From Candidatus Bathyarchaeia archaeon (GTDB lineage: Archaea > Thermoproteota > Bathyarchaeia > Bathyarchaeales > Bathycorpusculaceae): a stretch of 64,000 nucleotides of DNA. A program made the translations under genes and the position numbers. The notes beneath the pieces were generated by a model, which saw only the letters and a program-made list of their open reading frames with translations, was not told the DNA's origin and ran no database searches. Where the stretch lies: positions 121,625 through 185,624 of the forward strand of contig JAVZLQ010000002.1 of NCBI GenBank assembly GCA_038883655.1. The letters are read 5' to 3'. Of the stretch, positions 1-16,967 are shown in pieces; position 1 is the first letter of the stretch, and every line of letters begins with the position of its first letter.

Positions 1-423
1 ACGGACTCGTCTGGTTATGGTATTGTCAGCATAACCTTCTCTTTTCATCCACCATGCAAATTCGACAAGTTTGCCCTTAATTTCTGCCTCTCGTTGCGAT
101 GTTTGGTTCTGGTCTGTTGTTGTGGCTCCCGCAACCCGCTTTTCATCTTCTTTTTCTACTGTGACCAAGGTTTGCACCGCCGCCAAGGCGGTGGATTCTC
201 CCCCTTGAGGGTCATTGTTCCCTTGGCAACTATGGTCTAAGCTGCTTTCAAGATTTAAGCTAAATGGAGGATTCTTCCATTGCCTCCGCTTTTTATGGTT
301 TGGATCTGTGAAGCGGTAGCTACAGTCTCTGCAAAGCCAACGCTGGACACTTGTCCCATCAGCCAAGTAACGTAGTCCATCTCTGTAAAGCCTTTGGGAG
401 CCGCATTGGGGGCACCGGGTCAT
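1..423 (-). CDS. Probable tyrosine recombinase/integrase, N-terminal part only (runs off the left edge)
   Basis: Manual translation from ATG at 423 gives 141 open codons: MTRCPQCGSQRLYRDGLRYLADGTSVQRWLCRDCSYRFT (Zn ribbon), a linker, then IKGKLVEFAWWMKREGYADNTITRRVR, which resembles an integrase core-binding (SAM-like) domain start. The catalytic domain lies outside the window. Confidence 0.7.
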   Translation of the reverse strand, partial: MTRCPQCGSQRLYRDGLRYLADGTSVQRWLCRDCSYRFTDPNHKKRRQWKNPPFSLNLESSLDHSCQGNNDPQGGESTALAAVQTLVTVEKEDEKRVAGATTTDQNQTSQREAEIKGKLVEFAWWMKREGYADNTITRRVR

Positions 424-545: not shown

Positions 546-1022
546 TTAGGAAGCTTCCGTAGCAGCTGGGCTTTCGTTCAACGCTTCCAGTAACGCCTTT
601 TTCTGCTCCAGTGGCAAAGCCTTCACCTTCGCCATCAAATCGGCGTCTAAAGGGCTTTCAGGCTGCTGATCCACCGACAGCTTCTGCTGGGGCTCACGAT
701 ATGGAACGCCGAAGATTATCTGCTTTTCTTCGCCTCGCACTGTCTGCGTTTCAATTTTGACTTTGACCTTTTTGCCCTTCCACAAGGCGCTGTCGTCGCC
801 AAACGCGTCTATTAGGCGGTCCCACGTGGTGCTGTTGAAACCCCAAGTGTAAAGCTCGCCTGTTCTTAGCAGTCGGACAACAGCGTAGCCGCGCGGCTTC
901 TCGAAACGGCTTTCCTCAGCACTGCGCACATAAGGCTCCTCAACTATCTCCACCACGTCGTCCTGGCGGACATGCTGCGGCTTCAAGTACGGCGGCTTAC
1001 TCATCCTCGGAAGTCTAACCAT
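546..1022 (-). CDS. Element protein, possible OB-fold ssDNA-binding protein
   Basis: YLK...FNSTTWDRLIDAFGDDSALWKGKKVKVK pattern resembles virus-encoded SSB-like proteins; overlaps the upstream gene. Confidence 0.5.
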   Translation of the reverse strand: MVRLPRMSKPPYLKPQHVRQDDVVEIVEEPYVRSAEESRFEKPRGYAVVRLLRTGELYTWGFNSTTWDRLIDAFGDDSALWKGKKVKVKIETQTVRGEEKQIIFGVPYREPQQKLSVDQQPESPLDADLMAKVKALPLEQKKALLEALNESPAATEAS

Positions 1023-1998: not shown

Positions 1999-2220
1999 TC
2001 AGTCGTGGTTTTTGTCCTCCTTGTTGTGTTTTACAAGAATATGCATGTTTTCTATGGGTTCAACATGGTTGATTCCAAGTTTTCTTAGTTTTTCTCTGAC
2101 TGCATCGCGTATGAACTCGGTTTTGGTGTAATGCCAATTTTTTGCGACTGCTTCATTTACGGCTTTGTCCAATGCTTCGGGAACTCGTATATTCCATGTT
2201 GCACTTTCTCTCTTTCTCAT
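1999..2220 (-). CDS. CopG/RHH family DNA-binding protein
   Basis: TWNIRVPEALDKAVNEAV...TKTEFIRDAVREKL is a classic RHH pattern; start moved to ATG 2220. Confidence 0.8.
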   Translation of the reverse strand: MRKRESATWNIRVPEALDKAVNEAVAKNWHYTKTEFIRDAVREKLRKLGINHVEPIENMHILVKHNKEDKNHD

Positions 2221-2275
2221 AATAAATTCCTTCATTTTTTGTAGCAAATTTTTTAAACTGTCCTTGTATAAAGAA

Positions 2276-2737
2276 ATGGCGGACAACAGTTGTCCACCCA
2301 TATTAAGTTGGTGGACAGATATGTACAAGCCAAAACCAAATATTTCATATGCAAGCAGACCAACACCAAGTATTTCACATTCAAGCAAGCGGTTTCGTTA
2401 TAAACAAGCTATTTTTCAAAGACTTATAAACGCCGCAGCTTCAGAAAGGGAACTCATGAAGGACATAAATGTCCCCGGCTCTGAGAGAAAGACTTTCGAT
2501 AGAGCAGTTAAGGACCTTGTGGGCATCGGAGTATTGACAAAAGATGAGAAATCTGGGAAGTTATATGCATATGGGCATGAGCCTCCCGAAACAGTTGAAA
2601 TAAACGTAGGTTCATCAAACCTAAAATTGACGTTTCCAGTTAATAGAGAACAAGCCAAGAAGATCGTTAAAAAATGCCCATCACTAAGGAAGGATAAAGA
2701 GACTTCAACCGTACTAAAAGAAACAGAAATACTCTAA
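2276..2737 (+). CDS. Winged-helix DNA-binding protein, divergent from the RHH gene
   Basis: AIFQRL..ASERELMKDI...FDRAVKDLVGIGVLTK..SGKLY wHTH pattern; start uncertain. Confidence 0.6.
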   Translation: MADNSCPPILSWWTDMYKPKPNISYASRPTPSISHSSKRFRYKQAIFQRLINAAASERELMKDINVPGSERKTFDRAVKDLVGIGVLTKDEKSGKLYAYGHEPPETVEINVGSSNLKLTFPVNREQAKKIVKKCPSLRKDKETSTVLKETEIL

Positions 2738-2928: not shown

Positions 2929-2956
2929 ATCTCCATTAACTGCAACTAACAGAAGG
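2929..2956 (+). repeat. 11-6-11 dif-like putative recombination site A
   Basis: atctccattaa-ctgcaa-ctaacagaagg; 19/23 identical to site B over the core. Confidence 0.65.
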
Positions 2957-3016
2957 TGCTTGTTCTTTAAAGTTTTAATTAGTGTTTATGTGCAAATAAT
3001 TTGTGTAGAGTGATGC

Positions 3017-3838
3017 GTGAATCCCGTTGTGGGAGTGAGTGGGTTGCCTGTTGATGTTGGTTTGGAGCTGTATGGTGAAAAGGGTGTTGTTTTGCCGTTT
3101 TTTACGGGGCATGTGGCTAGGGGTGTGTTTTTGCATATTGTGAGGCAGGTGGATCCTAAGGCGGCTGGCGTTTTGCATGAGTTGGATGTTTCTAAGCCTT
3201 ACAGCGTTACGCCATTGCGTTTCAAGAGTATTTCACGGGTTGAGAATGGTCTTGTTTTGGATCCTGCTCATCCTTGTCGTGTAGGTTTTAGGTTTTTGAG
3301 GGATGATTTGGCGGGTTACGTGTTGAGGTTTTTTGAACGGCAGAATATTGTTATGATTTTTGACACTGTTTTTCGCATAGCTTCTTTAAGTATTAAGAGC
3401 AAAAGCTATGGGGATTTGGAGCGTGAAGCTGAAGCTGTTGAGCGTTTTAGGCTTGTTTTTCAGACGCCTACTTATTTGCCTTGTTTGGGTAGCAGTTATC
3501 GTTGGATGTTCCCCGATGCGGTAAGAGTATTTTCTGGGCTGATGCGTATTTGGAACAAGTTTAGTGACGGTAGACATTTTGGTAAAAAGGAGTTTTTGGC
3601 TTATAAGGAGTGGTTGGCGAAAAATGTTGGCATTTGTGGATATAGGCTTTGGACGAAGTTGGCGGTTATGCGGGACAAGAAGGCTGTTGGGTTTGTAGGA
3701 TGGTGCTCATATGAGATGGGGGATTTGGAAAGTGAGTGGAATAGGGTGACGGTTATGCTGGCTAAATATGCGGAATACTCAAACATAGGAGGAAACAAAA
3801 CAGCAGGATACGGCGTAACAAAAACAAATATAATGTAG
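3017..3838 (+). CDS. cas6: CRISPR endoribonuclease Cas6
   Basis: KPYSVTPL, F.TPT and C-terminal G-loop IGGNKTAGYG; first gene of the cas operon. Confidence 0.92.
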   Translation: MNPVVGVSGLPVDVGLELYGEKGVVLPFFTGHVARGVFLHIVRQVDPKAAGVLHELDVSKPYSVTPLRFKSISRVENGLVLDPAHPCRVGFRFLRDDLAGYVLRFFERQNIVMIFDTVFRIASLSIKSKSYGDLEREAEAVERFRLVFQTPTYLPCLGSSYRWMFPDAVRVFSGLMRIWNKFSDGRHFGKKEFLAYKEWLAKNVGICGYRLWTKLAVMRDKKAVGFVGWCSYEMGDLESEWNRVTVMLAKYAEYSNIGGNKTAGYGVTKTNIM

Positions 3839-3848
3839 GCGATACTAT

Positions 3849-6113
3849 ATGGTAAGCGAATTGAAGGAAGTTTTCTATAAAATTCTTGACGGGAAGGAAC
3901 CTTATCCTCACCAATTGAGGACCGCTGAAAACCTAGTTTATGGGAAGTCGGTTATATTACGGGCTCCATGCGGATCTGGTAAAACAGAAGCAGCCTATGT
4001 GCCTATACTTCTTGGCTTGAAGGGCATGTCGTCATGCAGGTTAGTCTATTCATTGCCGACTCGCGCCTTAGTTGAGGATGTTGCTGAACGTATAATGAAG
4101 GGCGTTGCTAAAACCGGGGGTAGGTTTACTGTTTCACCTCAACATGGAGCAAACTCGAAAGATCCATTTTTTAGGAGTAACATTATAGTTGCAACGATTG
4201 ACCAGACTGTCGGTGCTTATTGTTGCACTCCATTAAGCCTGCCAGTGCATTTTGGGAATATTCCTGCGGGAGCTGCTGTTTCCTCTTTTCTATGTTTTGA
4301 TGAAGCGCATGTTTATGATTATGAGTTAGGTCTTCAAAGTATGCTTGTTCTTTTAGAGAGAGCAACGAGGTTGGGGCTGCCTTTTCTAGTTATGTCTGCT
4401 ACCTTGCCAGAGTCTTTTATGGAGTGGTTCGTGAACAATCCCATTTTCGCCGACAAAGTTGCGGTTATCGAGGGAGATGAAAGCGATATACCTAAGAGAC
4501 GAGATCGGTGTGTCGTCTTAAAGTGGTGTGACAAGGTTCTCGAGGCAAAAGATGTTTTTGACGCTGCAGAAATTTATGGTAAAATCATGGTTGTTTGTAA
4601 CACAGTAGATCGCGCACAGAAACTTTATGAATGTGTTGAAAAACAGCTTAGAACGCAGAATTTTAGCGTCTATCTATTACATTCTAGATTCTTAAATGAA
4701 GATAGGGAAAGAATTGAAAAAGATATGAAGGCATCCGTCAGAGACAAGAATGCTAAAACGCTCATAGTGACAACACAGGTGTGTGAAGTGGGGATGGATA
4801 TTTCTTGTGATTTATTATTGACTGAGCTTGCACCACCCGATGCGCTTGTGCAAAGAATTGGCCGGTGTGCACGCTATGGCGGGCACGGTGAAGTCATGGT
4901 TTATGATGTGGCTTCTCATGTACCCTATGGCGAAGCAGAGATTGCGCAAAGTAGAAACTATATTGTGGAAAACCTTGACGGAAAGAGAATCGGCTGGAAA
5001 GAGGAACTTGAATTTGTGAACAGCATTTTAAACGAAACTTTTAAGACGATAATAAATGATTATCGGCGAAGATGCAGAGTATTGCTTGGTTTAGGTGATG
5101 CCGCATTTAAGGGAGACAGGTATGGTATAGAAAGGAATGTCCGTGAGATTTTAACGGCAAATTTAACGGTACACGATAACCCTGGAACATTAAAATATAA
5201 AGAACTTTTATGCATGCCCTGGCTTAATGTTGACATTAGAGTCTTAAGCAGATATTTAAGCGGTGTAAGATACTGGGAGGTTATTTTTGGACACGATGAA
5301 CACGGAAAGCCACAGTTCGATATCAAAGTCCACGGTAAACTATACCCATATGGATTTTACATAATACATCCAGATTATGCAAAATATGACAAGAACATAG
5401 GTTTAATTTTTGGCGAAAAGGGTTCGACTCTTACACCAGTAGAGGATAAGATGCGGGATCAGATGGCATTAAGCTATGATTACAGGAAGGAAATGTGGAT
5501 TGAGCATTCAACAAAATGCCTTCTTGCATTTAAAAAACTCCGAGAAAAAGAGATACACTCCATCCATTTGTTGGCAGACATTATAGATCTTGACGATTAC
5601 ACAACAGAAGCGTTGTTAGCAATAAGTGTTGCCCTTCACGATTTAGGGAAGCTTAATACACGATGGCAAAAAAGTATAGGAATCCATGAGAATGATATCC
5701 CACTCGCTCACACAACTTATCAACAGAAAGTTCCACCTCATGCGACAATATCTGCAGATGCGGTTTACCCTTTTTTCAAGACTATGCTTCCAAATGTACA
5801 TTTTGCACTGGCATTTAAATTCGCCATAGCTCACCACCACCATACAAGAGCAGAAGAAATATTGCCTTATGAACTTAGATGGAAAAGTCATTACGAAAGC
5901 GTAATCAAAGATGTATGCAGAGAATACTCAATAGACGTGAACCCAGCAGAAATAAAAACATCAGAAAACACATATAAAAAGTTAGAAACTCCCATGTTTA
6001 ACTTAGAGTCTTTAAAGCCCTACACGGCGTACTGCATAATATCGCGAATAATACGTTTAAGCGATAGAGAATCCTTCACAGTAAATATGGAAAGCTATTT
6101 AAAAAATAGTTGA
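3849..6113 (+). CDS. cas3: Cas3 helicase with C-terminal HD nuclease domain
   Basis: APCGSGKT, DEAH, MSAT, LHSRF, QRIGRCAR, followed by H..HDLGK...H..H...HHH...LSD at the C-terminus. Confidence 0.95.
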   Translation: MVSELKEVFYKILDGKEPYPHQLRTAENLVYGKSVILRAPCGSGKTEAAYVPILLGLKGMSSCRLVYSLPTRALVEDVAERIMKGVAKTGGRFTVSPQHGANSKDPFFRSNIIVATIDQTVGAYCCTPLSLPVHFGNIPAGAAVSSFLCFDEAHVYDYELGLQSMLVLLERATRLGLPFLVMSATLPESFMEWFVNNPIFADKVAVIEGDESDIPKRRDRCVVLKWCDKVLEAKDVFDAAEIYGKIMVVCNTVDRAQKLYECVEKQLRTQNFSVYLLHSRFLNEDRERIEKDMKASVRDKNAKTLIVTTQVCEVGMDISCDLLLTELAPPDALVQRIGRCARYGGHGEVMVYDVASHVPYGEAEIAQSRNYIVENLDGKRIGWKEELEFVNSILNETFKTIINDYRRRCRVLLGLGDAAFKGDRYGIERNVREILTANLTVHDNPGTLKYKELLCMPWLNVDIRVLSRYLSGVRYWEVIFGHDEHGKPQFDIKVHGKLYPYGFYIIHPDYAKYDKNIGLIFGEKGSTLTPVEDKMRDQMALSYDYRKEMWIEHSTKCLLAFKKLREKEIHSIHLLADIIDLDDYTTEALLAISVALHDLGKLNTRWQKSIGIHENDIPLAHTTYQQKVPPHATISADAVYPFFKTMLPNVHFALAFKFAIAHHHHTRAEEILPYELRWKSHYESVIKDVCREYSIDVNPAEIKTSENTYKKLETPMFNLESLKPYTAYCIISRIIRLSDRESFTVNMESYLKNS

Positions 6114-6128
6114 TAGTAATAAGGTATT

Positions 6129-7184
6129 ATGAATGGTAGGCTCTTTGTTAACAAAACTGGATTTGAAATGTTTGATTGCTTTAGAGCATATGGCTTGGCT
6201 TTTTTAATAGGCGGCCTCGAGAACTACCCAGTAGCATACATTCGTGACAGCGGTTCAGCTTATGTTATCGATGTAGAAGGTGAACTCCCACGATATCCAA
6301 ATGTAGAAATTTTTGAAAAAACGGAAAGTAACTCGTGGTCTATGGTTTTTCAAACGTTTAAGGAACGTAAAGATTTGAAAGGCAAACCTCCTTTGGAAGA
6401 TGTAAGAGAAATAGCAACACAGGATTATGGTAAGATACTTAATCTTCACAGTAGGCGCGATTTTGTACCTGAAATAGGTACTAAAGTTAAAGATGGGAAA
6501 ACACTATACCAAACAATCGACGTATCAGCCTCTAAAGGGTACAGAGAAGAAAAGAGGATAACTTACCATGAAGGTAGCCAGCTCCAAGTGGATAAGTTCT
6601 CTTGGTGTATCGCGGCTATTGGCGCCGCTTGGTTTGGTGTTTGGCCTCGAAACTTGATGAGAAGAGATGTAAGTTTCTCGGTTTGTATAGCCCCTAACCC
6701 TGAGAAAGTTCTACTACTAACTCATAGAGGAATCCACCAAAATGTTGAGAAGCAACTCTGCCCAATATCGGCAAACACAGCGATTATTCATTATTCAATA
6801 AAACTTGTAAAGATCGCCATCGTAAAATCTGATGAGGTGAATTATAACGAAGTGATTTTCAACGTAATGCAAAAAACTGGACAGCAGCCAAAACCAGGAG
6901 GAGGCGGTAGATATAACCTTAAATTTTTAACAGACTTAGTCAAAACTCCTACAGGCCACAAGGCTCTTGACCACATTGATAAATATCTTCTACCGACAAA
7001 CCCCAATATAAAGGGAATAAAGCAAGATGTTGCTTTAGCTCTATCAGATTTTCTACTACATCCTACTTTAAATAACTTCAAAAGGTTTGAAAGCTTATAT
7101 ATACGTGGAGAGCTCAACAAAGAATTATATCCTTGGGAAAAACCACAGTTAGAGGAGTTGTTAAGGTATGTCGAATTTGCATGA
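6129..7184 (+). CDS. cas8a: Type I-A large subunit, Cas8a-like
   Basis: N-terminal KTG..FD...AYGLA pattern; size and position between cas3 and csa5/cas7. Confidence 0.7.
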   Translation: MNGRLFVNKTGFEMFDCFRAYGLAFLIGGLENYPVAYIRDSGSAYVIDVEGELPRYPNVEIFEKTESNSWSMVFQTFKERKDLKGKPPLEDVREIATQDYGKILNLHSRRDFVPEIGTKVKDGKTLYQTIDVSASKGYREEKRITYHEGSQLQVDKFSWCIAAIGAAWFGVWPRNLMRRDVSFSVCIAPNPEKVLLLTHRGIHQNVEKQLCPISANTAIIHYSIKLVKIAIVKSDEVNYNEVIFNVMQKTGQQPKPGGGGRYNLKFLTDLVKTPTGHKALDHIDKYLLPTNPNIKGIKQDVALALSDFLLHPTLNNFKRFESLYIRGELNKELYPWEKPQLEELLRYVEFA

Positions 7185-7503
7185 TTTGTTTAATCATCCC
7201 GCCGTCGAAAGTTTCGGTAAGGCCCTACGTATCGCTATTGGAATAAACGAAGATTACGCATCACTTGTGGAGTTGGACTATGCAGAGAGAAAGGAGGAAC
7301 TTGTCCTTGCGTTAAAGAAGTTTCTTCGGAGGCTAAATGCAAACGCAAGAAAATATGAACGTGAGCATCCGGGGAAGATTGCATTTAAACCTAATGAAAA
7401 GGATCTTGACGAAGTTGTAGGTTTGGCAGAGCAGCATGGAGCCCGTTTAGTATGTGCAGCAATAATATCTCACGCTCTTGTAAGAGCTGAAAAGGAGGAA
7501 TAG
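7168..7503 (+). CDS. csa5: Small subunit Csa5/Cas11
   Basis: 111 aa, predicted all-helical, directly upstream of cas7. Confidence 0.7.
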   Translation: MSNLHDLFNHPAVESFGKALRIAIGINEDYASLVELDYAERKEELVLALKKFLRRLNANARKYEREHPGKIAFKPNEKDLDEVVGLAEQHGARLVCAAIISHALVRAEKEE

Positions 7504-7507
7504 AAAG

Positions 7508-8401
7508 TTGAGTGAAAAGGTGTATGAAATAGGTTTTATAGGAAGGATTCGCATAGATGCCCATTCATTAAACAACGAAGGAACAGTCGGCAATGTAACA
7601 GAGCCAAGAACAATCATTCTAGCTGACGGGCAAAAAACTGACGGAATCAGCGGAGAAATGCTTAAACACATGCATGCAGAGGCACTCTGGCAGTTGACAA
7701 AAGAAAGGGAACCAAAGAGCCTTTGCCCAGCATGTCAAGTTCTAAGCCCCATGAAGGCAGACGCTAACGAGAATGTGAAGAAGCATAAAGACGTAAAGTC
7801 AGCACTTGATGAAGCGTTAAACTGTACAATCTGCGATGTACACGGTTTTCTTGTGCAAAAGCCAACATTTAGCCGCAAATCCACTGTAGAATTTGGATGG
7901 GCTTTCGCTTTACCAAATAAATTTCACAGAGACATTCATGTTCATACGCGTGTTGCAGCTGGCGAAAAAGAAGCAACCACAGAAACTACGGAACAAATGA
8001 TTTATAATAGGCCAACCCGCTCTGGAGTTTACGCTTTTGTCTCGGTTTTTCAGCCATGGCGTATAGGACTTAATGAAGTTGACTACACTTACAAGATTGA
8101 TGACGCTGCAAGAAAAGCCCGTTATGATTTAGTGCTAGAAGCTTATAAGGCTATGATGACTCGTCTCGAAGGGGCTATGACTTCAACGCGATTACCACAC
8201 CTTGGAGACTTTACAGGTCTAATTGTCAAAACAGTCAACGCCTTTCCAGTTCCAATAATAAGCCCGTTAAAGGATGACTATATGCACCAGATTGAAACGG
8301 TCGTGAGCCCAAGAAATATGCACAAATTTGATTCATTGACTTCAATGTTACAAGTAATAGACAAGCTGAAAGATGCATCACCATACAAGCTTGGGGCATA
8401 G
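7508..8401 (+). CDS. cas7: Cas7 (DevR/Csa2 family)
   Basis: AHSLNNEG..GN, ISGEMLKH, CPAC/CTICDVHGF, RKS.VEF. Confidence 0.92.
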   Translation: MSEKVYEIGFIGRIRIDAHSLNNEGTVGNVTEPRTIILADGQKTDGISGEMLKHMHAEALWQLTKEREPKSLCPACQVLSPMKADANENVKKHKDVKSALDEALNCTICDVHGFLVQKPTFSRKSTVEFGWAFALPNKFHRDIHVHTRVAAGEKEATTETTEQMIYNRPTRSGVYAFVSVFQPWRIGLNEVDYTYKIDDAARKARYDLVLEAYKAMMTRLEGAMTSTRLPHLGDFTGLIVKTVNAFPVPIISPLKDDYMHQIETVVSPRNMHKFDSLTSMLQVIDKLKDASPYKLGA

Positions 8402-8407
8402 TAACTC

Positions 8408-9124
8408 ATGGTATGGACATGTGCAAAATACACTTTTCCAAGCACATTCTCCTATAGAATTCCATATTTTTCTTCAAGTTATGCCTTGTCAGCTCCTGTG
8501 CCAAGCCCATCAACTGTGAAGTTAGCCTTAGTTTCTTCAGTAATAAATAGAAACGGAAATGTGGAAACTGGGAAGAAACTTTTTGAAAAAATTCGTTGCT
8601 CTATGGTCACTATGGAATTGCCTGAAAAAATGATAATGTTGAAGGCCTTCATGAAAAGACTCAAACAAAAAAGGAAAGGACATGAAACGACAATCAAAAC
8701 ATCCTTTGGCGAACTTGTTGAGCGATTCGAGCCGACTTTTGGAATAAGGGAATATGTCATTTACTGCGGCCCCCTACATATTTATGTGGACGCGCCAGAT
8801 GATTCCGTTCAAGATGTACTAAAAGGCTTTAAACTAGTTCAATATTTCGGATCATCAGACTCGCTATGCACCTGCCTTGAGACAAACACATCAGAACCCA
8901 ACTGGCAAAAGTGTATTAGGCCAGTAGACTCTGGAAATGAAAAGTTTGACACCCAAGGAATGGTTTTCTTGCTAACAGATTTTACTGAAAAGGTAGCGTT
9001 CGAGTCTGTGAACCCGTTCTCAGGTAAAAAGTTGAAGAAGGGAGAACTTTTGCAAAAGCCCTACTTTTTCCCATTAAAAATCATTAAAAAAGAGAAAAAT
9101 TGCACCATATATAAATGCTTATAG
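8408..9124 (+). CDS. cas5: Cas5 (type I-A)
   Basis: FSYRIP...PSPSTVK.AL, REY, YFGSSDSL. Confidence 0.88.
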   Translation: MVWTCAKYTFPSTFSYRIPYFSSSYALSAPVPSPSTVKLALVSSVINRNGNVETGKKLFEKIRCSMVTMELPEKMIMLKAFMKRLKQKRKGHETTIKTSFGELVERFEPTFGIREYVIYCGPLHIYVDAPDDSVQDVLKGFKLVQYFGSSDSLCTCLETNTSEPNWQKCIRPVDSGNEKFDTQGMVFLLTDFTEKVAFESVNPFSGKKLKKGELLQKPYFFPLKIIKKEKNCTIYKCL

Positions 9125-9763
9125 CCCATGGCATGTTTGTTTGTGTCCGCATCCTCCTTGGCATTTGTTTGGGGCTACTCTTATGGGTGGAAGTCTCTCT
9201 TCTCTAATTATTCTTTTAATGTGTCCAACAATCCTTTTCACATAACTTTTCATCGTAGGCGTTATCTCAAACTTTAAAATTAGCTGTTCAGGAATATAAT
9301 TCACAAAACCCCGCTTAACCACAGTGCCAAAGTTTTCCTCCACAAGCAAGGCATAAGCCACAAGCTGGTACTTATGGTCCATGTAGGCTTTTCCCCTATC
9401 AGAGTTCATGTTCTTATACTCGACTGGAACATACTCGCCCTTAACCGTCCTTATTATACAGTCTACTACGCCATGAAGCTGAAGGCTTTTTGAAATAAGT
9501 GGAACGAAAAGAAGCTTCTCAGCGCCAACAAATTCAGGCGAATAATAAACCGCATCCTTTCGCCTAAGCTCTTTGCGCACGTACTCCATATGCAGTTCTT
9601 GGCTTTCCTCCTGCTGAGAACCAAAAACAGGCTGAGCATGCAAAACCCGATCAAAATACACAAGCCGTGGACAATAAACATAATGCTTAACATCAGTAAC
9701 CGAAACCAAAGGCTCAGCGATATCTGAGATTGGCAAATTCTGCCGTTTTTCAGTCTCGCTCAT
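9119..9763 (-). CDS. cas4: Cas4
   Basis: YCPR, G.VD, PVEYK, QL.AY, C..GC....C Fe-S motif. Confidence 0.93.
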   Translation of the reverse strand: MSETEKRQNLPISDIAEPLVSVTDVKHYVYCPRLVYFDRVLHAQPVFGSQQEESQELHMEYVRKELRRKDAVYYSPEFVGAEKLLFVPLISKSLQLHGVVDCIIRTVKGEYVPVEYKNMNSDRGKAYMDHKYQLVAYALLVEENFGTVVKRGFVNYIPEQLILKFEITPTMKSYVKRIVGHIKRIIREERLPPIRVAPNKCQGGCGHKQTCHGL

Positions 9764-10280
9764 TCTTTCCCATCTTTTCTAGACTTTCCATAATTTTCGC
9801 ATAAGTTTCAACGCTACATCTCCACCCAGCAAAAATCATATCGTTTATTGCTTGTTTCGCCTTTTCCTTTGTAATGAGCCCTTGAGAAAACGCCTTAACC
9901 AAAACATATGGTGTTCCTGCGTAGGTTATCCCATAGATTTTAGCTGTTTTCCTTGCAACTTCATCATCGATTATGGCGATTCCGTCGCGTTCCTTCGCTA
10001 TGACTAAAACTTCAGCGTCAGTCACATGAAGCCCCCTTGTTTGCAAAAAAGTCTCTAGGAGACTTGTGTCTTTAGGTTTTACAACTTTGAAAACGTCTTT
10101 TTGAAATAACCTTTCTAAAACCATGGCGTCTGCAACGCCTTTGCGCTTGCCTTCATCCACAACCTCACGTTTAACACTTGGAGAAGTTAATTTCTCTCCT
10201 TTTAACTCTTCAAAAATTCGGCTTAATCCAATTTTCGTTATGTAAATTAACGGAGTGGAATTGAACACAAGCAACTTCAT
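9750..10280 (-). CDS. PIN-domain (DUF3368/VapC-like) toxin
   Basis: VFNSTPLI, V.REV, DAEVL..A, IIDD..AR..A...G....GT. Confidence 0.88.
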   Translation of the reverse strand: MKLLVFNSTPLIYITKIGLSRIFEELKGEKLTSPSVKREVVDEGKRKGVADAMVLERLFQKDVFKVVKPKDTSLLETFLQTRGLHVTDAEVLVIAKERDGIAIIDDEVARKTAKIYGITYAGTPYVLVKAFSQGLITKEKAKQAINDMIFAGWRCSVETYAKIMESLEKMGKNERD

Positions 10281-10282
10281 TT

Positions 10283-10600
10283 CTACTTTGCCGCCGCAGA
10301 CGCTTCCTTAAACTCTCTCTCAATTTCCTGGGGCGAATATCTAACCCATTCGATGTTGCGCTGCTTTAGTAGGTCGGCGAACTCCCAAAGCGAAAGCTTA
10401 GCCATTTCAGCAGCCTTAGCAAAGGTCACCTTCCCATCACGCAGCAGCTCAAGGGCTGTTTGCTTACGCCATTCACCAATACCCAACTCAAGAAGAGTCC
10501 TAACAACAGTGGCCTTATCCAAACCCTCCTGCTCAACCACCTCCTGAATTTCCCTCTCTATCTTCTCTGGAATTCTCACAGCTAAAGGCTTAAGAGCCAA
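10283..10600 (-). CDS. UPF0175-family antitoxin (RHH plus HTH)
   Basis: LAVRIP...DKATVVR and ALELL..GKVTFAKAAEMA.LS.WEF; start moved to TTG 10600 behind an SD-like GGTGA. Confidence 0.85.
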   Translation of the reverse strand: MALKPLAVRIPEKIEREIQEVVEQEGLDKATVVRTLLELGIGEWRKQTALELLRDGKVTFAKAAEMAKLSLWEFADLLKQRNIEWVRYSPQEIEREFKEASAAAK

Positions 10601-10652
10601 CCTCGTCACCGTAAACAAAAGATACCAAACGCATACATAAGAGTTGCGCATT

Positions 10653-10943
10653 TCAAAAATAAGCCACCTTCTCTTTCTCTTCCTTTAATTCGTACTTTTT
10701 AGGTTTACCAACTTCCAGTCTTCCCTTAAAACAAGTGTCGCAGAGGGGATAAAGCTGAACATTTTCAACCAAATCCTTAATCAGATTCTTTAAGTCCACA
10801 ATAAGGCTGTTTAATTCGTCGCGGCGCAGACTACCAATGAATGCGCTGTATTGAATACGTTGCAACCCATAATCCTTCAGCGTTTCAGCAATTAAAGCCC
10901 GCAAATTATCATCCGTAATGTCATAAATCACCAAGTAGCGCAT
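10653..10943 (-). CDS. cas2: Cas2
   Basis: YLVIYDI, L..YGL.RIQYSAF, C..C. Confidence 0.95.
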   Translation of the reverse strand: MRYLVIYDITDDNLRALIAETLKDYGLQRIQYSAFIGSLRRDELNSLIVDLKNLIKDLVENVQLYPLCDTCFKGRLEVGKPKKYELKEEKEKVAYF

Positions 10944-10949
10944 TTCGTT

Positions 10950-11984
10950 TCACCATCCCAGAGTAAACGGTGCGTAATCAGCCTCACGTAAAAGAAAACG
11001 TGCCACACGCCGTGCCTGATGGTGAATAAAGCCTTTGATGGAGCTCCTTTGCCCGTCAAACATAACCTCTGTATCCAAGCGTTCCTGAAAACTCGTAAGC
11101 AAAGTTTTAATCGCCTCTCTGCTTAAAACTCTGTCCTCTTTAAAAGCCTCGGCAACAACAATCTCGCCAGGCTTAATCACATTCTTCGTTATCAAACCAA
11201 TAAGAGTTCTATCCACAACCTGTTGCCGAAACTCCTCCATTAAATCCAAAACAAGCGAGGGCTTACCCGGCCTATCAGCATGTAAATAACCTGCATAAAA
11301 GTCTAAGCCAGCATAGCTTACAGCCTTCCAAACTTCCGGAAAAAGAATTGTTTGATAGCCAAAATTTAACATGGCATTAAATGGATCGCGGGCACCCCTT
11401 GTTTCGCGTCCCGTAAAGCCCAACTCGGCTGGCAGAATCTGGCGCACAGCCTCCCAATAGAAACGTGCGGCTTCAGCCTCCAAATTCATCAAATCTTGAC
11501 GTTTATCATCAATCCTTAAACCATGCTCCTCATCAACTTTCATGTTTATTTGGTCAATAGCCTTACCTGCTTCGTAAAGCCTTTCAGAAAGCGTGGGGTC
11601 TGTCTGGCGCCTGTTTTTCGCCATCAACTTCAACAAGTTCGCTTGATTGGTAAGCTTCCCAGAAACAAACCTTTTGGCTAAAATGAAGCCTCTTTCATCG
11701 TTGTAGGCTATGAACTGTTCTCTTCGGGCTCTAACAGAACCCGTCATTGAAGCAGGCATTAAAACGGCGTATGGCCAACCGCTGTAACGGGCGAAGACCA
11801 CTTGAATATTGTTTTGGACGGCTAAAGCCAAAGCGCTTGCTGAAAATGCTACACCGGACGAGCAACAAATTATAGAGTCAACGTCATCTGCGACTATTTC
11901 CTTAACTTCTCCCTCCTTTTTTACAATAAAGCGGTTTCTTTTCCTTCCCAGGAAAATGCCAAAATCATCCAAGAAAATCCTCAT
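10950..11984 (-). CDS. cas1: Cas1
   Basis: EAEAARFYW, DPFNAMLNFGY, GYLH, SLVLDLMEEFR..VD. Confidence 0.97.
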   Translation of the reverse strand: MRIFLDDFGIFLGRKRNRFIVKKEGEVKEIVADDVDSIICCSSGVAFSASALALAVQNNIQVVFARYSGWPYAVLMPASMTGSVRARREQFIAYNDERGFILAKRFVSGKLTNQANLLKLMAKNRRQTDPTLSERLYEAGKAIDQINMKVDEEHGLRIDDKRQDLMNLEAEAARFYWEAVRQILPAELGFTGRETRGARDPFNAMLNFGYQTILFPEVWKAVSYAGLDFYAGYLHADRPGKPSLVLDLMEEFRQQVVDRTLIGLITKNVIKPGEIVVAEAFKEDRVLSREAIKTLLTSFQERLDTEVMFDGQRSSIKGFIHHQARRVARFLLREADYAPFTLGW

Positions 11985-11999
11985 AAAACCACAGCCGCT

Positions 12000-12887
12000 T
12001 TATTCATAGCAAACTTTGAAGTATATGCAGTCTTCTGGACATTGAGAACGATTGGGTTTGCCTGGGTCTTTTCCTTCAGCTACAATCTCAAGCTTTTTGT
12101 CGCGCTCTTCGATCCACCATTGCCTCAACTCATCGCTTGCAAAAAACAAATCTCTACGCATCAAGACCTTTCCGTCTCTGACATCAAGGTAAACGTTGCA
12201 GCAAACGTCTATTGGAACCTCGTGGACACTTTCGAAGACAAGAGCGTAGCCTACTGGCGAAAGCCTATGCCATTCCTGCGGTTCACTTGCCACTTTTAAA
12301 TCGAACATTATCGCCTTCAAATAATCATAACAGTCCAAGCTGAGTATACCGCTTAATCCAAGCAATTCGCCAGAAATTTTGTGTTCAACCAGAAATGGAA
12401 CTGCAGACGCTATCAAGTCAAGTTCAGAGGCGTAGGGCTGTCTACTGGAAACCTCAGCTAAGCGTGCTTCACAGATTTTTTGTAGAAAATCCCAAACTTT
12501 TCTGGATGGTTCCTTCAAGTTTTCAGGCTTTTCATTGATTTCAGACCATCGAATAGTTTGCCACCAAGATTCAAAATCGACGCTGTGTCGTTGAGCAAAT
12601 GCTCTTAAACAGTCGCTGACAACTCCATGGAGAATTTTGCCCAAAGCCACCTTACTGCTGGGAACAGGTGAAATCTTCTCCACATAACGCAGATACACAT
12701 CACGGTTTGTGGGGCAATACTTTGAGCATACGGCGTACATGGGCAGCTTAACATTATCGTAATAGGGCTTTAAGGGAGGCTGATGCCAACTCCAGCCCCG
12801 CAACTCTTTGCTGACGCCAACCTCGCGGACAGTGGGCAAAAGCTGATAAAGCAAATACTTGTGCTCAACATCAGACAGGAAATACAA
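12000..12887 (-). CDS. csa1: Csa1 (Cas4-like, type I-A)
   Basis: ELRGWSW, YCPT.RDVYL, D.K, C..DC.Y..VC. True start is TTG at 12887; the ORF-track extension to 13196 reads through the leader and array. Confidence 0.9.
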   Translation of the reverse strand: MYFLSDVEHKYLLYQLLPTVREVGVSKELRGWSWHQPPLKPYYDNVKLPMYAVCSKYCPTNRDVYLRYVEKISPVPSSKVALGKILHGVVSDCLRAFAQRHSVDFESWWQTIRWSEINEKPENLKEPSRKVWDFLQKICEARLAEVSSRQPYASELDLIASAVPFLVEHKISGELLGLSGILSLDCYDYLKAIMFDLKVASEPQEWHRLSPVGYALVFESVHEVPIDVCCNVYLDVRDGKVLMRRDLFFASDELRQWWIEERDKKLEIVAEGKDPGKPNRSQCPEDCIYFKVCYE

Positions 12888-13022
12888 CCTTATCCAACCA
12901 TTAAAAAGCCTATTTCGATTATCTTTATAAATCAAATTGCATCCTAATAATAATCGAAAATACATATTAAAACTAAACCTAAAAACAGCCTCAAGCAACA
13001 AAACCGCCAAAATAAGCCTGCA
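12888..13022 (+). promoter_or_regulatory. CRISPR leader and divergent csa1 promoter
   Basis: AT-rich 135 nt with TTTATAAA at about 12924-12931, directly before repeat 1. Confidence 0.75.
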
Positions 13023-14585
13023 GATGCAGAATAAAAATCCCAATAAAGGGAATTGAAAGGTTAAAGCTATTGTTGTTTTCTCTTCGCCTCCTGTTTTCTG
13101 ATGCAGAATAAAAATCCCAATAAAGGGAATTGAAAGAGGATTTAATTCATTTTTTGCCACATGTGCCTTTTTTAGGATGCAGAATAAAAATCCCAATAAA
13201 GGGAATTGAAAGGTTTAAGCGTTAAAGCATGGAACCAAATTGCAACGTGATGCAGAATAAAAATCCCAATAAAGGGAATTGAAAGTATTTACCATGCCCC
13301 CTTGGCTTAGCCATATAGATATGGATGCAGAATAAAAATCCCAATAAAGGGAATTGAAAGGGGCAACTCCACGTCCCACTTTTTAGTCCACTAGTGCTAC
13401 GATGCAGAATAAAAATCCCAATAAAGGGAATTGAAAGCTTGAGAAGGCATGAGCGATTCCGAAAACTGATTCATGATGCAGAATAAAAATCCCAATAAAG
13501 GGAATTGAAAGTCGCCCAATAGAAGGCCCTTGGACGGTAGCTGCGGATGGGATGCAGAATAAAAATCCCAATAAAGGGAATTGAAAGTTTTGCCGTAGAG
13601 GCTCTTGTAGGCGTTCGGGAAACACTCGATGCAGAATAAAAATCCCAATAAAGGGAATTGAAAGACTCGCCACCCCCCAGCTTCATGTAAACTTTAACTT
13701 TGAGATGCAGAATAAAAATCCCAATAAAGGGAATTGAAAGCAGTCATCATCAACGGTGGCACAGGGCGTAGCAGTGCGTGGGATGCAGAATAAAAATCCC
13801 AATAAAGGGAATTGAAAGTTTTTTAAACCACCTCCAACGTTTATTCTTATAATATAATGATGCAGAATAAAAATCCCAATAAAGGGAATTGAAAGCGTGA
13901 CATGAGATAGTCAGCCAAGCTGAATAGGCGTTCCAGATGCAGAATAAAAATCCCAATAAAGGGAATTGAAAGGCATTAACGCACCCGCACCACAGAATAC
14001 CCCAGCTACTACAGATGCAGAATAAAAATCCCAATAAAGGGAATTGAAAGACTATGCTTCTACCGACTTCTGCGATTCCCATAACTATGATGCAGAATAA
14101 AAATCCCAATAAAGGGAATTGAAAGATGGGCTGTAACAGTTACGAAGGTTACAGTGACAGCATCAGATGCAGAATAAAAATCCCAATAAAGGGAATTGAA
14201 AGCGCTTTTTGGGGGAGCAGGTGGAATAGTGACACTTTTGATTGATGCAGAATAAAAATCCCAATAAAGGGAATTGAAAGGTTTAACGTTGTAACTTTCA
14301 ATTATGAGGGCTATGCTGTGATGCAGAATAAAAATCCCAATAAAGGGAATTGAAAGTCGAGTGCAATCTCTTTGACTTTCTCCCGCATATATTCGATGCA
14401 GAATAAAAATCCCAATAAAGGGAATTGAAAGAATATAAGCATATTGGAAAGCTGTGGTTTGGGATGCGCCGATGCAGAATAAAAATCCCAATAAAGGGAA
14501 TTGAAAGTCACAATAATCTGGTATAGTAATCCATATTCTGTCCTTGAAGATGCAGAATAAAAATCCCAATAAAGGGAATTGAAAG
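13023..14585 (+). CRISPR. CRISPR array: 21 identical 37-bp repeats, 20 spacers of 36-41 bp
   Basis: Repeat GATGCAGAATAAAAATCCCAATAAAGGGAATTGAAAG; ATTGAAAG 3' handle and TCCC/GGGA stem give the + orientation. Confidence 0.99.
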
Positions 14586-14600
14586 AAATTTAATTGACAT

Positions 14601-14628
14601 TGTTCCGTTAGCAGCGACTAACAGAACC
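14601..14628 (+). repeat. 11-6-11 dif-like putative recombination site B
   Basis: tgttccgttag-cagcga-ctaacagaacc; arms 9/11 inverted; 15 nt after the last repeat. Confidence 0.65.
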
Positions 14629-14762
14629 TGAAATAAGTCATAAAGAGCGCTTGTGCTTCTATCTGTTAACTTTTGGGCTTTGTTTTTAATGCATTTTTCT
14701 TTGATGAGAAAATTTTTATAGCTTTACGAATATACTTTGTTTCCGTTAAATTGGAGCAACTG

Positions 14763-15911
14763 ATGATGAAAACTATCTGTGGGTTTGTGTTTACGTTGTT
14801 TGTAATAGGCGTAATTTCAACTCTTAGCATTCAAACAATAACTTTGAAATTTGAGGGAACCCACGAAGTTAAAGCGGAAAGTTCCTCCAATTATTACGTA
14901 TTTACGATGGAGATTATGGGGGAGAATTACACTATCGCTATTGAAACAGACGGAACTGTTGGCAGTTTCCATTATTCGAACTTTACTTTTGGCTGGGTTG
15001 GCGTGGGTAATAGCTATTACAATATCACCATTCCTAAATCGCTTAATAACACGCAGATACTCGCAAGGAGTAGCTCATATCAGGGTGCCTTCGAACCAGA
15101 TGAAATATCAATGAACGCAACACATTATTTTGTTTATTACTCAGATTGGTGGGTAAACACACTTTCCGATATTTTCTTCGGCGCTCCCTACGTTAGGCTA
15201 TCTATAGGTTCTTCTACAACCTATGTCGGATTTACGGTGAACATAGAGGCTGATGTAACATATCGAGGGAAACCATTAGCTAATTGGCCAGTAATTATAG
15301 TGGCATATACTGCGCCTTTAAGAGGAGATGTTTGGGCTTGGCAATGGATGAGCCTTCCACTAACTTTAATAGGCACTGGAAACACGACTCAGGATGGAGT
15401 ATATTCAGTTGTTTGGATGCCCACGGCAAGTGGGACATGGTGGATTTCAGCTGGGCTGGCAAACCCGTGGCCTCCAACCAATGGAGATTATCCAGAAGAA
15501 GCCTCTGACTCATTAAGCTTAAATGTTATTCCCCATGCTGACGCTGTGTTTTCTGTCGTATCTAACGCAACAGTTTCAGGGCTGACGTTCAACTCCACAA
15601 CTATGGAGTTAAGCTTCACCGTTGAGGGATCGAGTGAAACTATGGGATTCATTGATGTATTCATCTCAAAAACCTTACTCGAAGATCCAAGCGTCTTAGA
15701 GGTGTATCTTAACGTCACTCGATTAAGTTCAGAGCAGTTTACAGTAAGCTCAATGGACGAGTCATGGCGCCTACACTTAGAGATAACCTTCTCCAGCAAA
15801 TACTATGTTTCCATAGTAATTCCAGAATTCCCTTCAACCATACTCATTTTAGCGCTTTTAATCCTTACAGCATCTACTATTATCCTCTACAAAAACTACC
15901 ACAAAGGTTGA
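14763..15911 (+). CDS. Secreted surface protein with PEF-CTERM-type anchor
   Basis: N-terminal signal helix, beta-rich body with many N-x-S/T sequons, C-terminal IPEFPS plus TM helix plus basic tail; start moved to ATG 14763. Confidence 0.8.
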   Translation: MMKTICGFVFTLFVIGVISTLSIQTITLKFEGTHEVKAESSSNYYVFTMEIMGENYTIAIETDGTVGSFHYSNFTFGWVGVGNSYYNITIPKSLNNTQILARSSSYQGAFEPDEISMNATHYFVYYSDWWVNTLSDIFFGAPYVRLSIGSSTTYVGFTVNIEADVTYRGKPLANWPVIIVAYTAPLRGDVWAWQWMSLPLTLIGTGNTTQDGVYSVVWMPTASGTWWISAGLANPWPPTNGDYPEEASDSLSLNVIPHADAVFSVVSNATVSGLTFNSTTMELSFTVEGSSETMGFIDVFISKTLLEDPSVLEVYLNVTRLSSEQFTVSSMDESWRLHLEITFSSKYYVSIVIPEFPSTILILALLILTASTIILYKNYHKG

Positions 15912-15933
15912 AAATCCTAATTGGCATATTCGC

Positions 15934-15961
15934 TTTTCCATTAGCGATGATTAAAAGAACA
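15934..15961 (+). repeat. 11-6-11 dif-like putative recombination site C
   Basis: ttttccattag-cgatga-ttaaaagaaca; arms 9/11 and 8/11 identical to site B; lies between convergent genes. Confidence 0.6.
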
Positions 15962-16037: not shown

Positions 16038-16967
16038 TCAAAACTGGCGAATGCAACCAATCAGATGCTCAGCATTCTCGAATCTCTCTGAAAGCTCAAA
16101 TTCTAAATAAGCGCCGTAAGCGTTAAAGTATGGTGCTCCTTTCCGTGAGAATAGCGTTAAAATCATGCCTTCGTGGTCTATTTTGTAGCCTTCGTGGCAT
16201 GGTTCGTGTCCCCTAATCAAGAATTTCACATTGAACTTTTCGAGGATTTCTTTTGTTACTTTTTTGCCGAAGAGTTTTCCAGCTCCGCGGGGCGAGGCGC
16301 ATGATTCGCTTATCACGTCGTTTGGGTCGCTCCATAGCATTTCTTCAAGAAAGGTTTGTTTTGGGTGGTTTTTGTGGGCATAAGCCAAGTCCAGCAAGGT
16401 TTTGGCTGTTGTTGGCAAGCCTCCGTGAATAATTAAGCAGCGTTCTTCAACAAAAACTGCGGTGTAAAGGCAGTTGAAAAGCTCTCGGATTTTTGTGTAG
16501 GCTTCTTCCCATTTCTCGCCAAATTTCATCTGAAACTCTAGTGGCAGGTCATGCGGCGAAGCGAGAAGGTCTTCTGGTCCCTCATGGTTTCCACGCATAA
16601 GAATAACTTGCTTTGGAAATAGAATTTTTAGTTTCAATACTGTGTAGTAGACTTCCTTTGAGTATTCACCTCTATCGCCATAATCTCCGAGAAAGATTAG
16701 GGTTGCCTTGCTCCTCTGACGCATTTTTTCAAGGAATTTGCTCTGCCTAAATATGTCAAGGCAGCTTTCTATGTCGCCATGCAAGTCACCAATAACAAGC
16801 GCTTCGCCTTCTGGCTTGAGTTGAACAAGTCGTCCAATAACTTTGAAGTTTCCTAAATCGCCGTTCTCGCTGCAGATTAGGCTTTTTGCCTCATCAACAG
16901 TTTTTGCAAATTCTTCATATTTGGCTTCCAAAGCCTCTTTTATTAAGTGCGCGATGTCAATTTGCAA
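16038..16967 (-). CDS. PPP-family Ser/Thr protein phosphatase
   Basis: GDLHG, GDYGDRG, RGNHE, HGG, LWSDP, IRGHE, TLFS. Confidence 0.92.
   Translation of the reverse strand: MQIDIAHLIKEALEAKYEEFAKTVDEAKSLICSENGDLGNFKVIGRLVQLKPEGEALVIGDLHGDIESCLDIFRQSKFLEKMRQRSKATLIFLGDYGDRGEYSKEVYYTVLKLKILFPKQVILMRGNHEGPEDLLASPHDLPLEFQMKFGEKWEEAYTKIRELFNCLYTAVFVEERCLIIHGGLPTTAKTLLDLAYAHKNHPKQTFLEEMLWSDPNDVISESCASPRGAGKLFGKKVTKEILEKFNVKFLIRGHEPCHEGYKIDHEGMILTLFSRKGAPYFNAYGAYLEFELSERFENAEHLIGCIRQF

Follow-up and report, generated by a model that had tools for sequence, protein, structure and literature searches.

Dif-like sites with an ordered set of spacers border variable modules, including a CRISPR–Cas locus, in Bathyarchaeia

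Introduction

Modules bounded by Xer sites, and integron-like arrays, are known from bacteria. Integrative mobile elements exploiting Xer (IMEX; CTX-phi, TLC-phi and the gonococcal island) integrate at a single chromosomal dif site by means of host Xer proteins. Integron attC sites are long imperfect palindromes specific to each cassette, and the sfx sites of shufflons (recombinase Rci), which invert segments of one gene, combine a conserved right arm with a variable left arm. IntDOT, which integrates the conjugative transposon CTnDOT, is an active tyrosine recombinase with serine at the position of the first arginine. Integrons have been reported in Archaea (10.1101/2022.02.06.479319, accessible part). 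In Rep_3 plasmids of Acinetobacter, accessory modules are bounded by 28-bp Xer-type sites (pdif) with a 6-bp spacer; their exchange has been proposed to proceed in two steps, a cointegrate forming between two sites whose spacers are identical and then being resolved at another pair, and experimental rearrangements have been described between pdif sites whose spacers are the same or nearly identical (PMC13141974, accessible part). Here we analyse a stretch of 64,000 nucleotides (nt), referred to as the window, from a Candidatus Bathyarchaeia archaeon (assembly GCA_038883655.1, contig JAVZLQ010000002.1, positions 121,625 to 185,624), in which a type I-A CRISPR–Cas module lies between two dif-like sites, A and B, and a putative surface-protein gene lies between B and a third, C.

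Sites A, B and C belong to a family whose members carry recurrent 6-bp spacers in a common order and coincide with the edges of homology between genomes. Judging from these comparisons, they are probably spacer-matched tyrosine-recombinase core sites bounding exchangeable modules. As in IMEX, dif-like sites flank cargo in direct orientation; here many sites of ordered types lie inside a mobile element. The Acinetobacter modules are alike in their Xer-type boundaries, 6-bp spacer and two-step cointegrate logic, but pdif sites have distinct XerC and XerD arms and alternate in orientation (PMC13141974, accessible part), whereas the arms here are near-palindromic and the sites directly oriented. 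Also unlike the Acinetobacter modules are the few ordered spacer types kept exactly across genera, the archaeal host, the tRNA-integrated carrier and the inclusion of a whole CRISPR–Cas module. The archaeal host, direct orientation with near-palindromic arms, ordered exact spacers and CRISPR–Cas as one module appear to be new: a literature search found no description of such archaeal site-bounded modules in the accessible text of the sources consulted, which included PMC8371274, PMC2958812 and PMC10541130, and the words IMEX, cassette and Bathyarchaeota do not occur in the accessible text of PMC8371274, a review of archaeal tyrosine recombinases.

Sites in the window

Site A, 2929..2956, plus strand: ATCTCCATTAA-CTGCAA-CTAACAGAAGG, spacer type CTGCAA; left boundary of the CRISPR–Cas module
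Site B, 14601..14628, plus strand: TGTTCCGTTAG-CAGCGA-CTAACAGAACC, spacer type CAGCGA; right boundary of the CRISPR–Cas module
Site C, 15934..15961, plus strand: TTTTCCATTAG-CGATGA-TTAAAAGAACA, spacer type CGATGA; synteny with a genome of the same genus (G001) begins here

A sequence-only reading had placed these three sequences at 2929, 14601 and 15934, where they are exact on re-reading, and had aligned A with B at 19/23 core positions, the count also obtained here directly. Each site has two inverted arms of about 10–11 bp around a 6-bp spacer, which is the core geometry of tyrosine-recombinase sites; the shape common to the family is a dyad of about 10-6-10 with arms TTCYGTTAR and YTAACAGAA. 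Site A ends 60 nt before the GTG start codon of cas6 (3017), and a TATA-like box of cas6 is 11 nt downstream of it. Site B is nearly adjacent to the last CRISPR repeat, which ends at 14586, at a distance of 14 nt. Site C starts 22 nt past the stop codon at 15911, with convergent genes on both sides, in agreement with the first description.

That B is a degenerate terminal CRISPR repeat is ruled out by direct reading. At 18917-18939 (minus strand) the window has a fourth match to the pattern, with 1 mismatch; it is without the left-arm TTA, fails the arm model described below and is read as chance. Around 2865-2885, about 45 nt before site A, nine nucleotides (AACAGCGAC) match the B-type core and are followed by CTAATA; this may be the remnant of a B-type site or a chance match.

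A family of sites

The genome carrying the window (G000; 19 contigs, 1.42 Mb, with the window on contig C2) was compared with 151 genomes of the same Bathyarchaeia family (70 genera), with 252 genomes of other families and with a class-wide set of 301 genomes. The pattern from which the sites were first described is circular as a test for chance, so independent controls were used instead; with one mismatch allowed, that pattern occurs at 5 distinct places in the genome, near the ~3.6 expected by our own estimate. With up to one mismatch, the core of site A (TTAACTGCAAYTAACAGA) occurs 39 times in 27/151 family genomes and 19/70 genera, against a single occurrence of the reversed control. The consensus of 29 A-type sites, ttTCyrTTAA-N6-CTAACAGAA, combines a degenerate left arm and the CTGCAA spacer with a strong right arm, and conservation in the 29 aligned copies extends to positions beyond the search pattern (T at −4 in 21/29, C at −3 in 24/29 and A at +19 in 25/29).

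A 28-nt matrix was built from 28 A-type sites of other genomes, excluding the window's own, and applied to all 19 contigs. Site A ranks top (39.5 bits) and site B second (27.6 bits), and the third match in the whole genome reaches 12.6 bits. Site C is not recovered by this matrix in G000 because its spacer differs. A symmetric model of the arms alone gives four matches (B, 30.7; a D-like site, 26.1; an E site, 20.0; and C, 18.8) versus 1, 0 and 0 in three shuffles of the genome. With a looser arm threshold and the spacer compared with eight recurrent types (at most one mismatch), 8/12 matches have a recurrent spacer, versus 0/1, 0/3 and 0/7 in the shuffles. The weakest of the three sites is C, whose arms alone are borderline (21.0, against shuffle maxima of 18.7–20.3); it is accepted because of its exact spacer type and its position after B. 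Membership of A, B and C in a real site family is thereby confirmed.

Among the genomes searched, this kind of site is confined to a single family of Bathyarchaeia. B-type sites are present in 7/301 genomes of the class, all in one family, and in 0/252 genomes of other Bathyarchaeia families. In a 185,579-species collection, 13 stretches contain the exact 19-nt A core, 11 of them in records of Bathyarchaeia, Bathyarchaeota or uncultured archaea and 2 in bacteria, the latter in keeping with the ~4 that we estimate by chance. In a viral collection the A and B cores have one exact match each, the A match being without a left arm and without a nearby recombinase, and viral carriers were rejected.

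Module boundaries

Regions of 3 kb around the A-type sites of 30 loci were compared all-against-all, giving 39 homology blocks, of which 26 touch the site and 13 do not. Among those touching it, 22/26 begin or stop at a site edge: 15 stop at the right edge (+17 to +23) and 7 begin at the left edge (−6 to 0), with the remaining 4 running through. Upstream and downstream blocks are freely combined among the loci. In one locus (L038) the left arm and its flank are those of L027 and the right arm with its flank is that of L046, a mosaic that places the crossover within the site core, and this site looks recombinant.

Complete modules are bounded in the same way. Two loci, L070 (G011:C1) and L074 (G081:C15), share a block that is 92% identical and whose ends, at −4 and +2768, are exactly the left edge of A and the right edge of B; the flanks differ on both sides. 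Between the window's genome and a genome of another genus (G011:C2), homology extends from −6, the left edge of A, to the right edge of B, as expected if the sites bound the module. The CRISPR module of these two genomes is 89–92% identical, compared with 69–72% for their core DNA, placing the spread of the cassette between genera in the recent past. All three CRISPR cassettes with a readable far end (G000, G011:C2 and G088:C6) have a B site just past the array. With blocks from A edge to B edge and 22/26 blocks ending at edges, the modules are, like those of Acinetobacter, bounded on both sides and set in different flanks.

Contigs assembled from hot-spring metagenome runs (X1, X2, X4 and X6; X1 may be the source sample) have breakpoints at the sites. 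Matches to the window stop at 14627, the right end of B, and then follow two different continuations, one of which is the G011:C2-type flank; one further contig begins to match at 2935 with a different left arm. The cargo between B and C has a depth of 17 in X1 and of 0 in X2 and X4, and DNA to the right of C is covered. The stretch 14850-15917 is without cover in X2, X4 and X6. Circle or deletion junctions of A, B or C were not found among the contigs of the four runs, which says nothing either way, as contigs cannot show rare forms.

At site C, homology with G001 starts at 15941, and the site that G001 has there shows good arms, another spacer and another gene to its left. Three further genomes (G002, G009 and G021) are without a site at this position; the neighbour to the left of the phosphatase gene that follows C in the window is a different one, common to all three. 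That ancestral neighbour is found in G000 on contig C11 only (68% identity), and C11 is probably from another organism, so that no empty site next to the phosphatase gene could be shown. In none of G001, G002 and G003 does the phosphatase gene stand next to tRNA-Pro. Contig C11 carries a second copy of the phosphatase region together with the ancestral neighbour, at only 68–70% identity, and the small contigs of this assembly have a higher G+C content; C11 and the other small contigs probably derive from another organism in the bin.

Variable cargo in the slots

Different cargo in other genomes had been anticipated, and the A-then-B pair does enclose unrelated content. The slot between A and B ranges from 2.7 to 14.8 kb (11.6 kb in the window). 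It holds CRISPR–Cas in four genomes, a 1003-residue type IIG restriction-modification enzyme in G003:C7, an 886-residue C39-peptidase protein in G011:C1 and G081:C15, a 1092-residue NosD/Big_7 protein in G003:C2, and elsewhere genes without recognised function. The slot between B and C measures only 464 nt in G091:C30, too little for a gene, and reaches 2378 nt at its longest. Sites for a Csa3-type CRISPR regulator were considered and rejected: non-CRISPR cargo is enclosed in 6/10 of the A–B slots examined, and csa3 is absent.

Spacer types and their order

A spacer-free pattern, TTAR-N6-YTAACAGAA, has 367 matches in 71/151 family genomes, compared with ~47 for the reversed control (control sum by hand). 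Eight exact spacers recur:

Type A: spacer CTGCAA
Type B: spacer CAGCGA
Type C: spacer CGATGA
Type D: spacer GAGACA
Type E: spacer CACCTC
Type F: spacer TAACGT
Type G: spacer CGTGAA
Type H: spacer CAATGA

By hand count, 105 of the 150 matches listed have one of these spacers in either orientation, where chance would give 0.4%. Types D to H were defined after inspection of the match lists, and only the count for A to C is a clean test: these window-defined types account for 53 of the 150 matches listed (6 A, 25 B and 22 C, also counted by hand), with a chance value of 0.15%. The spacers are kept more exactly than the outer left arm. That the spacers fall into types with a particular order had been overlooked in the sequence-only reading.

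Along one strand the order is CTGCAA, CAGCGA, CGATGA, GAGACA, TAACGT, CGTGAA (A, B, C, D, F, G). It is complete in G011:C1, with A, B, C, D, F and G at 903.6, 906.4, 908.8, 912.9, 928.0 and 931.2 kb. The minus strand of G011:C2 has B, C, D, F and G in order; G088:C6 has A, CRISPR–Cas, B, D, F and G in order; and ordered pairs of types occur in ~15 further loci.

Elements carrying the series

Enclosing the whole series A to G of G011:C1 is a 33-kb element integrated at a tRNA gene. A 24-nt exact repeat, equal to the 5′ part of tRNA-Glu(CTC), is located 113 nt left of site A, and its second copy, 33.3 kb on, lies within the intact tRNA-Glu gene right after the stop codon of an integrase with a Zn-ribbon and FRKRK tail. 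Between these ends are, in order, a conserved terminal motif, the series A–G, a region of ~350 nt at F–G, and genes for a ribbon-helix-helix (RHH) protein, winged-helix, prim-pol-like and P-loop proteins (the last three named by eye from sequence) and the integrase. The same right half of the element is present in G088:C6 and in a second locus of G011:C1.

The F and G sites are always 120–150 nt apart (L113 4428-4900; L112; L138). The ~350-nt region around them is conserved; it has two extra half sites (TTTTCTAACAGGAAA) as well as TATA-like boxes and is located upstream of the RHH gene, which occurs in either orientation. The terminal motif (GGnGAtTTCTCCCGC..CCCCTCTTTTTCT) is found 30–66 nt before A-type sites in ~10/31 loci (for example, L070 9540-9590). 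In G011:C1 it follows the tRNA-Glu fragment, which identifies it as the left terminal region of the element; an RNA gene, the other candidate, is not indicated, as no Rfam family matched. Further copies in G000 are at C2:238954 and C3:1774 (both minus strand), one of them upstream of a XerA-like gene.

To the left of site A, the window contains the following:

1..423, minus strand: tyrosine integrase, 5′ part (N-terminal Zn-ribbon region); the gene continues left of the window
546-1022, 1015-1533, 1526-1783 and 1999-2388, minus strand: four small genes between the integrase and site A

This integrase matches Pfam Phage_integrase in its C-terminal part (7.4e-22), has weak Zn-ribbon matches in its N-terminal part and ends in a tail of the form FEYVC..FRKRK; its stop codon is 32 nt from tRNA-Pro(GGG) (G000:C2:120471-120571). 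It thus stands beside a tRNA gene, as does the integrase of G011 (tRNA-Pro and tRNA-Glu, respectively). In 6/24 loci an integrase of this type is found at most 6 kb from an A-type site. Besides the window, three loci have the layout in which it points away from A at 2.5 to 4.4 kb upstream. The small gene at 1999-2388 encodes a ribbon-helix-helix protein (RHH_1, 2.9e-4); the other three match no family. The four genes are not common to other loci and probably belong to the mobile element.

From tRNA-Pro to site C, the window island measures ~17 kb. We read it as a relative of the G011-type tRNA-integrating elements, though not a canonical one: its integrase abuts the 3′ end of the tRNA gene, and the terminal motif is absent.

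The tRNA-Pro gene has a 22-nt intron; a default tRNA scan missed it and the intron option found it. Inside the integrase gene is a run of Ns flanked by an exact 133-bp duplicate (G000:C2:121398-121624 and window 1-133), which looks like a scaffolding gap and not biology.

Candidate recombinases

Seven tyrosine-recombinase genes are found in G000: three of the Zn-ribbon type, one XerA-like, two of a family of ~310 residues and one other. The ~310-residue proteins (G000:C2:300292-301224 and C3:46-1002) are Xer-like and belong to a Bathyarchaeia family annotated only as ‘site-specific integrase’, the best 120 relatives being at least 56% identical. Among solved structures, the only match is Pyrococcus abyssi XerA (E 5.5e-9), and the score with the archaeal XerA model is 52.7 bits, for a cut-off of 220.

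Several features connect this gene with the sites. In loci L040 and L046 the reading frame ends in F-N-S-N-stop and F-S-C-N-stop, and the stop codon is the TAA of the right arm. A site follows the end of the gene in 5/11 places where the match reaches the C terminus, an E-type site is located ~100 nt upstream of its start in G000:C2 and G104:C10, and sites are also present in 14/15 genomes with the gene. Tentatively, we propose this recombinase as the enzyme that may act on the sites. At the end of C2 (301318-302036, minus strand), an F-type site, an E-type site and the gene stand in succession; a paralogue, ~84% identical, opens contig C3. That the two contigs both break here points to a repeated or variable region.

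The geometry, direct orientation and bounding of modules described in the sequence-only reading all hold, and it is in the choice of enzyme that we depart from it. One of its proposals was the integrase at 1-423 as shuffler of the modules. In the relative G011, this integrase type goes with tRNA-derived repeats; because the 24-nt tRNA repeat is at both ends of that element, it is more likely that the Zn-ribbon integrase inserts the whole element at a tRNA gene than that it shuffles modules. Its other proposal, host XerA acting on dif, fits poorly with sites that are not a single-copy dif, and the ~310-residue recombinase, whose gene overlaps sites, is the better candidate. The XerA-like gene itself (G000:C2:237664-238527) has its best matches among XerA structures (E 6.5e-15). 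An open reading frame of 318 residues beside A′ in G011:C2 was also examined; it has no recombinase-family match, no integron-like layout was seen there, and by eye it looks like an acetyltransferase.

Integrons are alike in that directly oriented sites separate units of cargo, with a tyrosine recombinase at the first site in some loci. They differ from the present case in that the sites here are 26–28 bp long and the same B type follows unrelated cargo, unlike attC; in that the cargo is multi-gene with its own promoters; and in that the recombinase is co-oriented with the array and overlaps a site. Integron-integrase models give scores of 54.5 and 83.8 bits, for a cut-off of 265, and no match for the site-linked recombinase.

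Proposed mechanism and alternatives

The comparisons show the family of sites, its ordered types, module limits at the edges of sites, slots of variable content and the recent movement of cassettes across genera. From this pattern we infer strand exchange within the sites, a spacer rule and the identity of the enzyme. The dyad arms would bind a recombinase dimer, with strands exchanged across the 6-bp spacer. The spacer would serve as an address, recombination being productive only between sites with the same spacer, which would keep spacers exact across genera while arms drift. When two DNAs bearing the series meet, fusion at one address and resolution at the next would swap the segment between them and keep the order. 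The series would lie along the cargo region of tRNA-integrating elements, with CRISPR–Cas in the first slot and the surface-protein gene in the second. It is possible, although we advance it with some reserve, that these bathyarchaeial elements are a natural cassette-exchange platform with six or more ordered, mutually incompatible addresses, served by a Xer-like enzyme without the first catalytic arginine. On such a platform any slot, even one with a complete CRISPR–Cas system, could be replaced by two spacer-matched crossovers, leaving its neighbours undisturbed.

If this is correct, it would be the first case in Archaea of modules delimited by such sites, analogous to dif modules and integrons, and would offer a concrete route by which CRISPR–Cas loci, restriction systems and surface proteins pass between genera of uncultured hot-spring archaea. 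Its ordered, exact spacers would be a natural version of the heterospecific-site cassette exchange used by engineers, and a thermophilic recombinase for which six or more orthogonal sites exist would be of practical use.

Several observations weigh against spacer-matched exchange by this enzyme. No recombination product, circle or cointegrate was seen in the metagenome runs, whose contigs drop rare forms. In 7/7 aligned members of the ~310-residue family, serine replaces the first catalytic arginine (His, Arg, His and Tyr are kept); the candidate recombinase is like IntDOT in this serine, and A-type sites are like sfx in arm asymmetry, neither of those systems being an array of exchangeable modules. 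The gene occurs in only 15/101 family genomes, has internal stops in 8/21 places and is frequently interrupted or located at the end of a contig; a search did not find it in G011, despite the 16 sites of that genome, and neither copy in G000 has a good site at its 3′ end. A tRNA-derived repeat was not found at the far end of the window island, and the window sites are inverted relative to the integrase when compared with G011 and G088. The order has exceptions: one C site is inverted within the array of L074, a B-type site precedes an E site and the recombinase gene in L091, and a CAATGA site precedes the A site in L087. Finally, the series lies in a conserved element backbone, so its order could be plain inheritance, and arm-like half sites occur in the promoter region beside the RHH gene, which fits a regulatory view.

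The serious rival, although we think it unlikely, takes up these last two points: the sites would be operators or stoperator-like sites for an element regulator (the RHH or the winged-helix protein near G), modules would be swapped by homologous recombination at short islands, and the order would reflect descent from one backbone. The conserved, TATA-containing F–G region with its half sites just upstream of the RHH gene, the short distance from site A to the cas6 TATA-like box and the confinement of the series to one element backbone all fit such a role. Dyad operators, however, would be expected to keep their arms better than their spacers, the opposite of what is found for the outer left arm. 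In addition, convergent genes flank site C, the B site of L070 overlaps the 3′ end of an open reading frame and sites elsewhere overlap the recombinase stop codon; 26–28 bp is also very short for homologous exchange between otherwise unrelated DNAs. Improbable, by comparison, is the first option of the sequence-only reading, that the sites are variants of the chromosomal dif and the modules exploit host XerA as IMEX do in bacteria. An 11-6-11 dyad is described for archaeal dif in the accessible part of PMC8371274, and G000 has the XerA-like gene at C2:237664-238527, but its product scores 101.7 bits with the XerA model (cut-off 220). A chromosomal dif is also single-copy and near-universal, whereas the pattern has 0 to 47 matches per genome, with 8 typed sites in G000; only 71/151 family genomes have any, the B type is absent from the 252 other-family genomes, and no type is both universal and single-copy.

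Its second option, in which A and B are the attL and attR of one CRISPR–Cas element inserted by the adjacent integrase, is very improbable: the integrase does lie 2.5 kb to the left and its type recurs near A-type sites (the 6/24 loci above), but the spacers of A and B differ (CTGCAA and CAGCGA), the A-then-B pair encloses unrelated cargo with no integrase inside in 8/24 loci, and in G011 the integrase type goes with the tRNA-Glu repeat as its att site. Chance similarity in AT-rich intergenic DNA or bidirectional terminators can draw on the T- and A-runs of site C between convergent genes and on its borderline arms. It is already refuted for A and B, and its overall probability is negligible given the family counts, the matrix ranking, the shuffles of the arm model, the recurrence of spacers and the restriction of the B type to one family.

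The CRISPR–Cas cassette and neighbouring genes

Between sites A and C and immediately beyond, the window contains:

3017-3838, plus strand: cas6 (Pfam, NCBIfam)
3849-6113, plus strand: fused cas3 helicase-HD (Pfam, NCBIfam)
6129-7184 and 7168-7503, plus strand: two unrecognised genes (0 families)
7508-8401, plus strand: cas7, DevR/Csa2 (Pfam, NCBIfam)
8408-9124, plus strand: cas5 (Pfam, NCBIfam)
9119-9763, minus strand: cas4 (Pfam)
9750-10651, minus strand: DUF3368 and UPF0175 pair, between cas4 and cas2 (Pfam)
10653-10943, minus strand: cas2 (Pfam)
10950-11984, minus strand: cas1 (Pfam)
12000 to ~12902, minus strand: csa1 (Csa1 equivalog, 182.7 bits; cut-off 103.35)
13024..14586, plus strand: CRISPR array, 21 repeats of 37 nt each, ending ATTGAAAG
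14673..15911, plus strand: B–C cargo, open reading frame of 412 residues (translation), ending in IPEFPST, a hydrophobic stretch and KNYHKG
16038..16967, minus strand: calcineurin-like phosphoesterase (Pfam 6.1e-25), the phosphatase gene above and first conserved core gene right of the island

Csa1, a Csa2/DevR-type Cas7, cas1, cas2, cas4, cas6, cas3 and repeats ending in ATTGAAAG identify the system as type I-A; cas8a and csa5 were not recognised in the window locus (0 families in library scans). From the repeat ending, following the usual convention, we place the array leader towards csa1, with site B beyond the trailer. The DUF3368/UPF0175 pair, which looks like a toxin–antitoxin pair, is also kept in the G011:C2 copy of the module. 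No family model matched the B–C open reading frame, which by eye looks as if it carries a PEF-CTERM signal. The phosphatase flank is conserved in 38/41 relatives.

Inside the cassette, the interference genes from cas3 to cas5 form a second swappable block (window 3823-9129), with no site of the family at either end. Both G011:C2 and G088:C6 align with the window to ~887 nt past A and again from 6193 nt past A, with the DNA in between unaligned, and contigs of X1 and X6 join 3823 to 9129 through other DNA.

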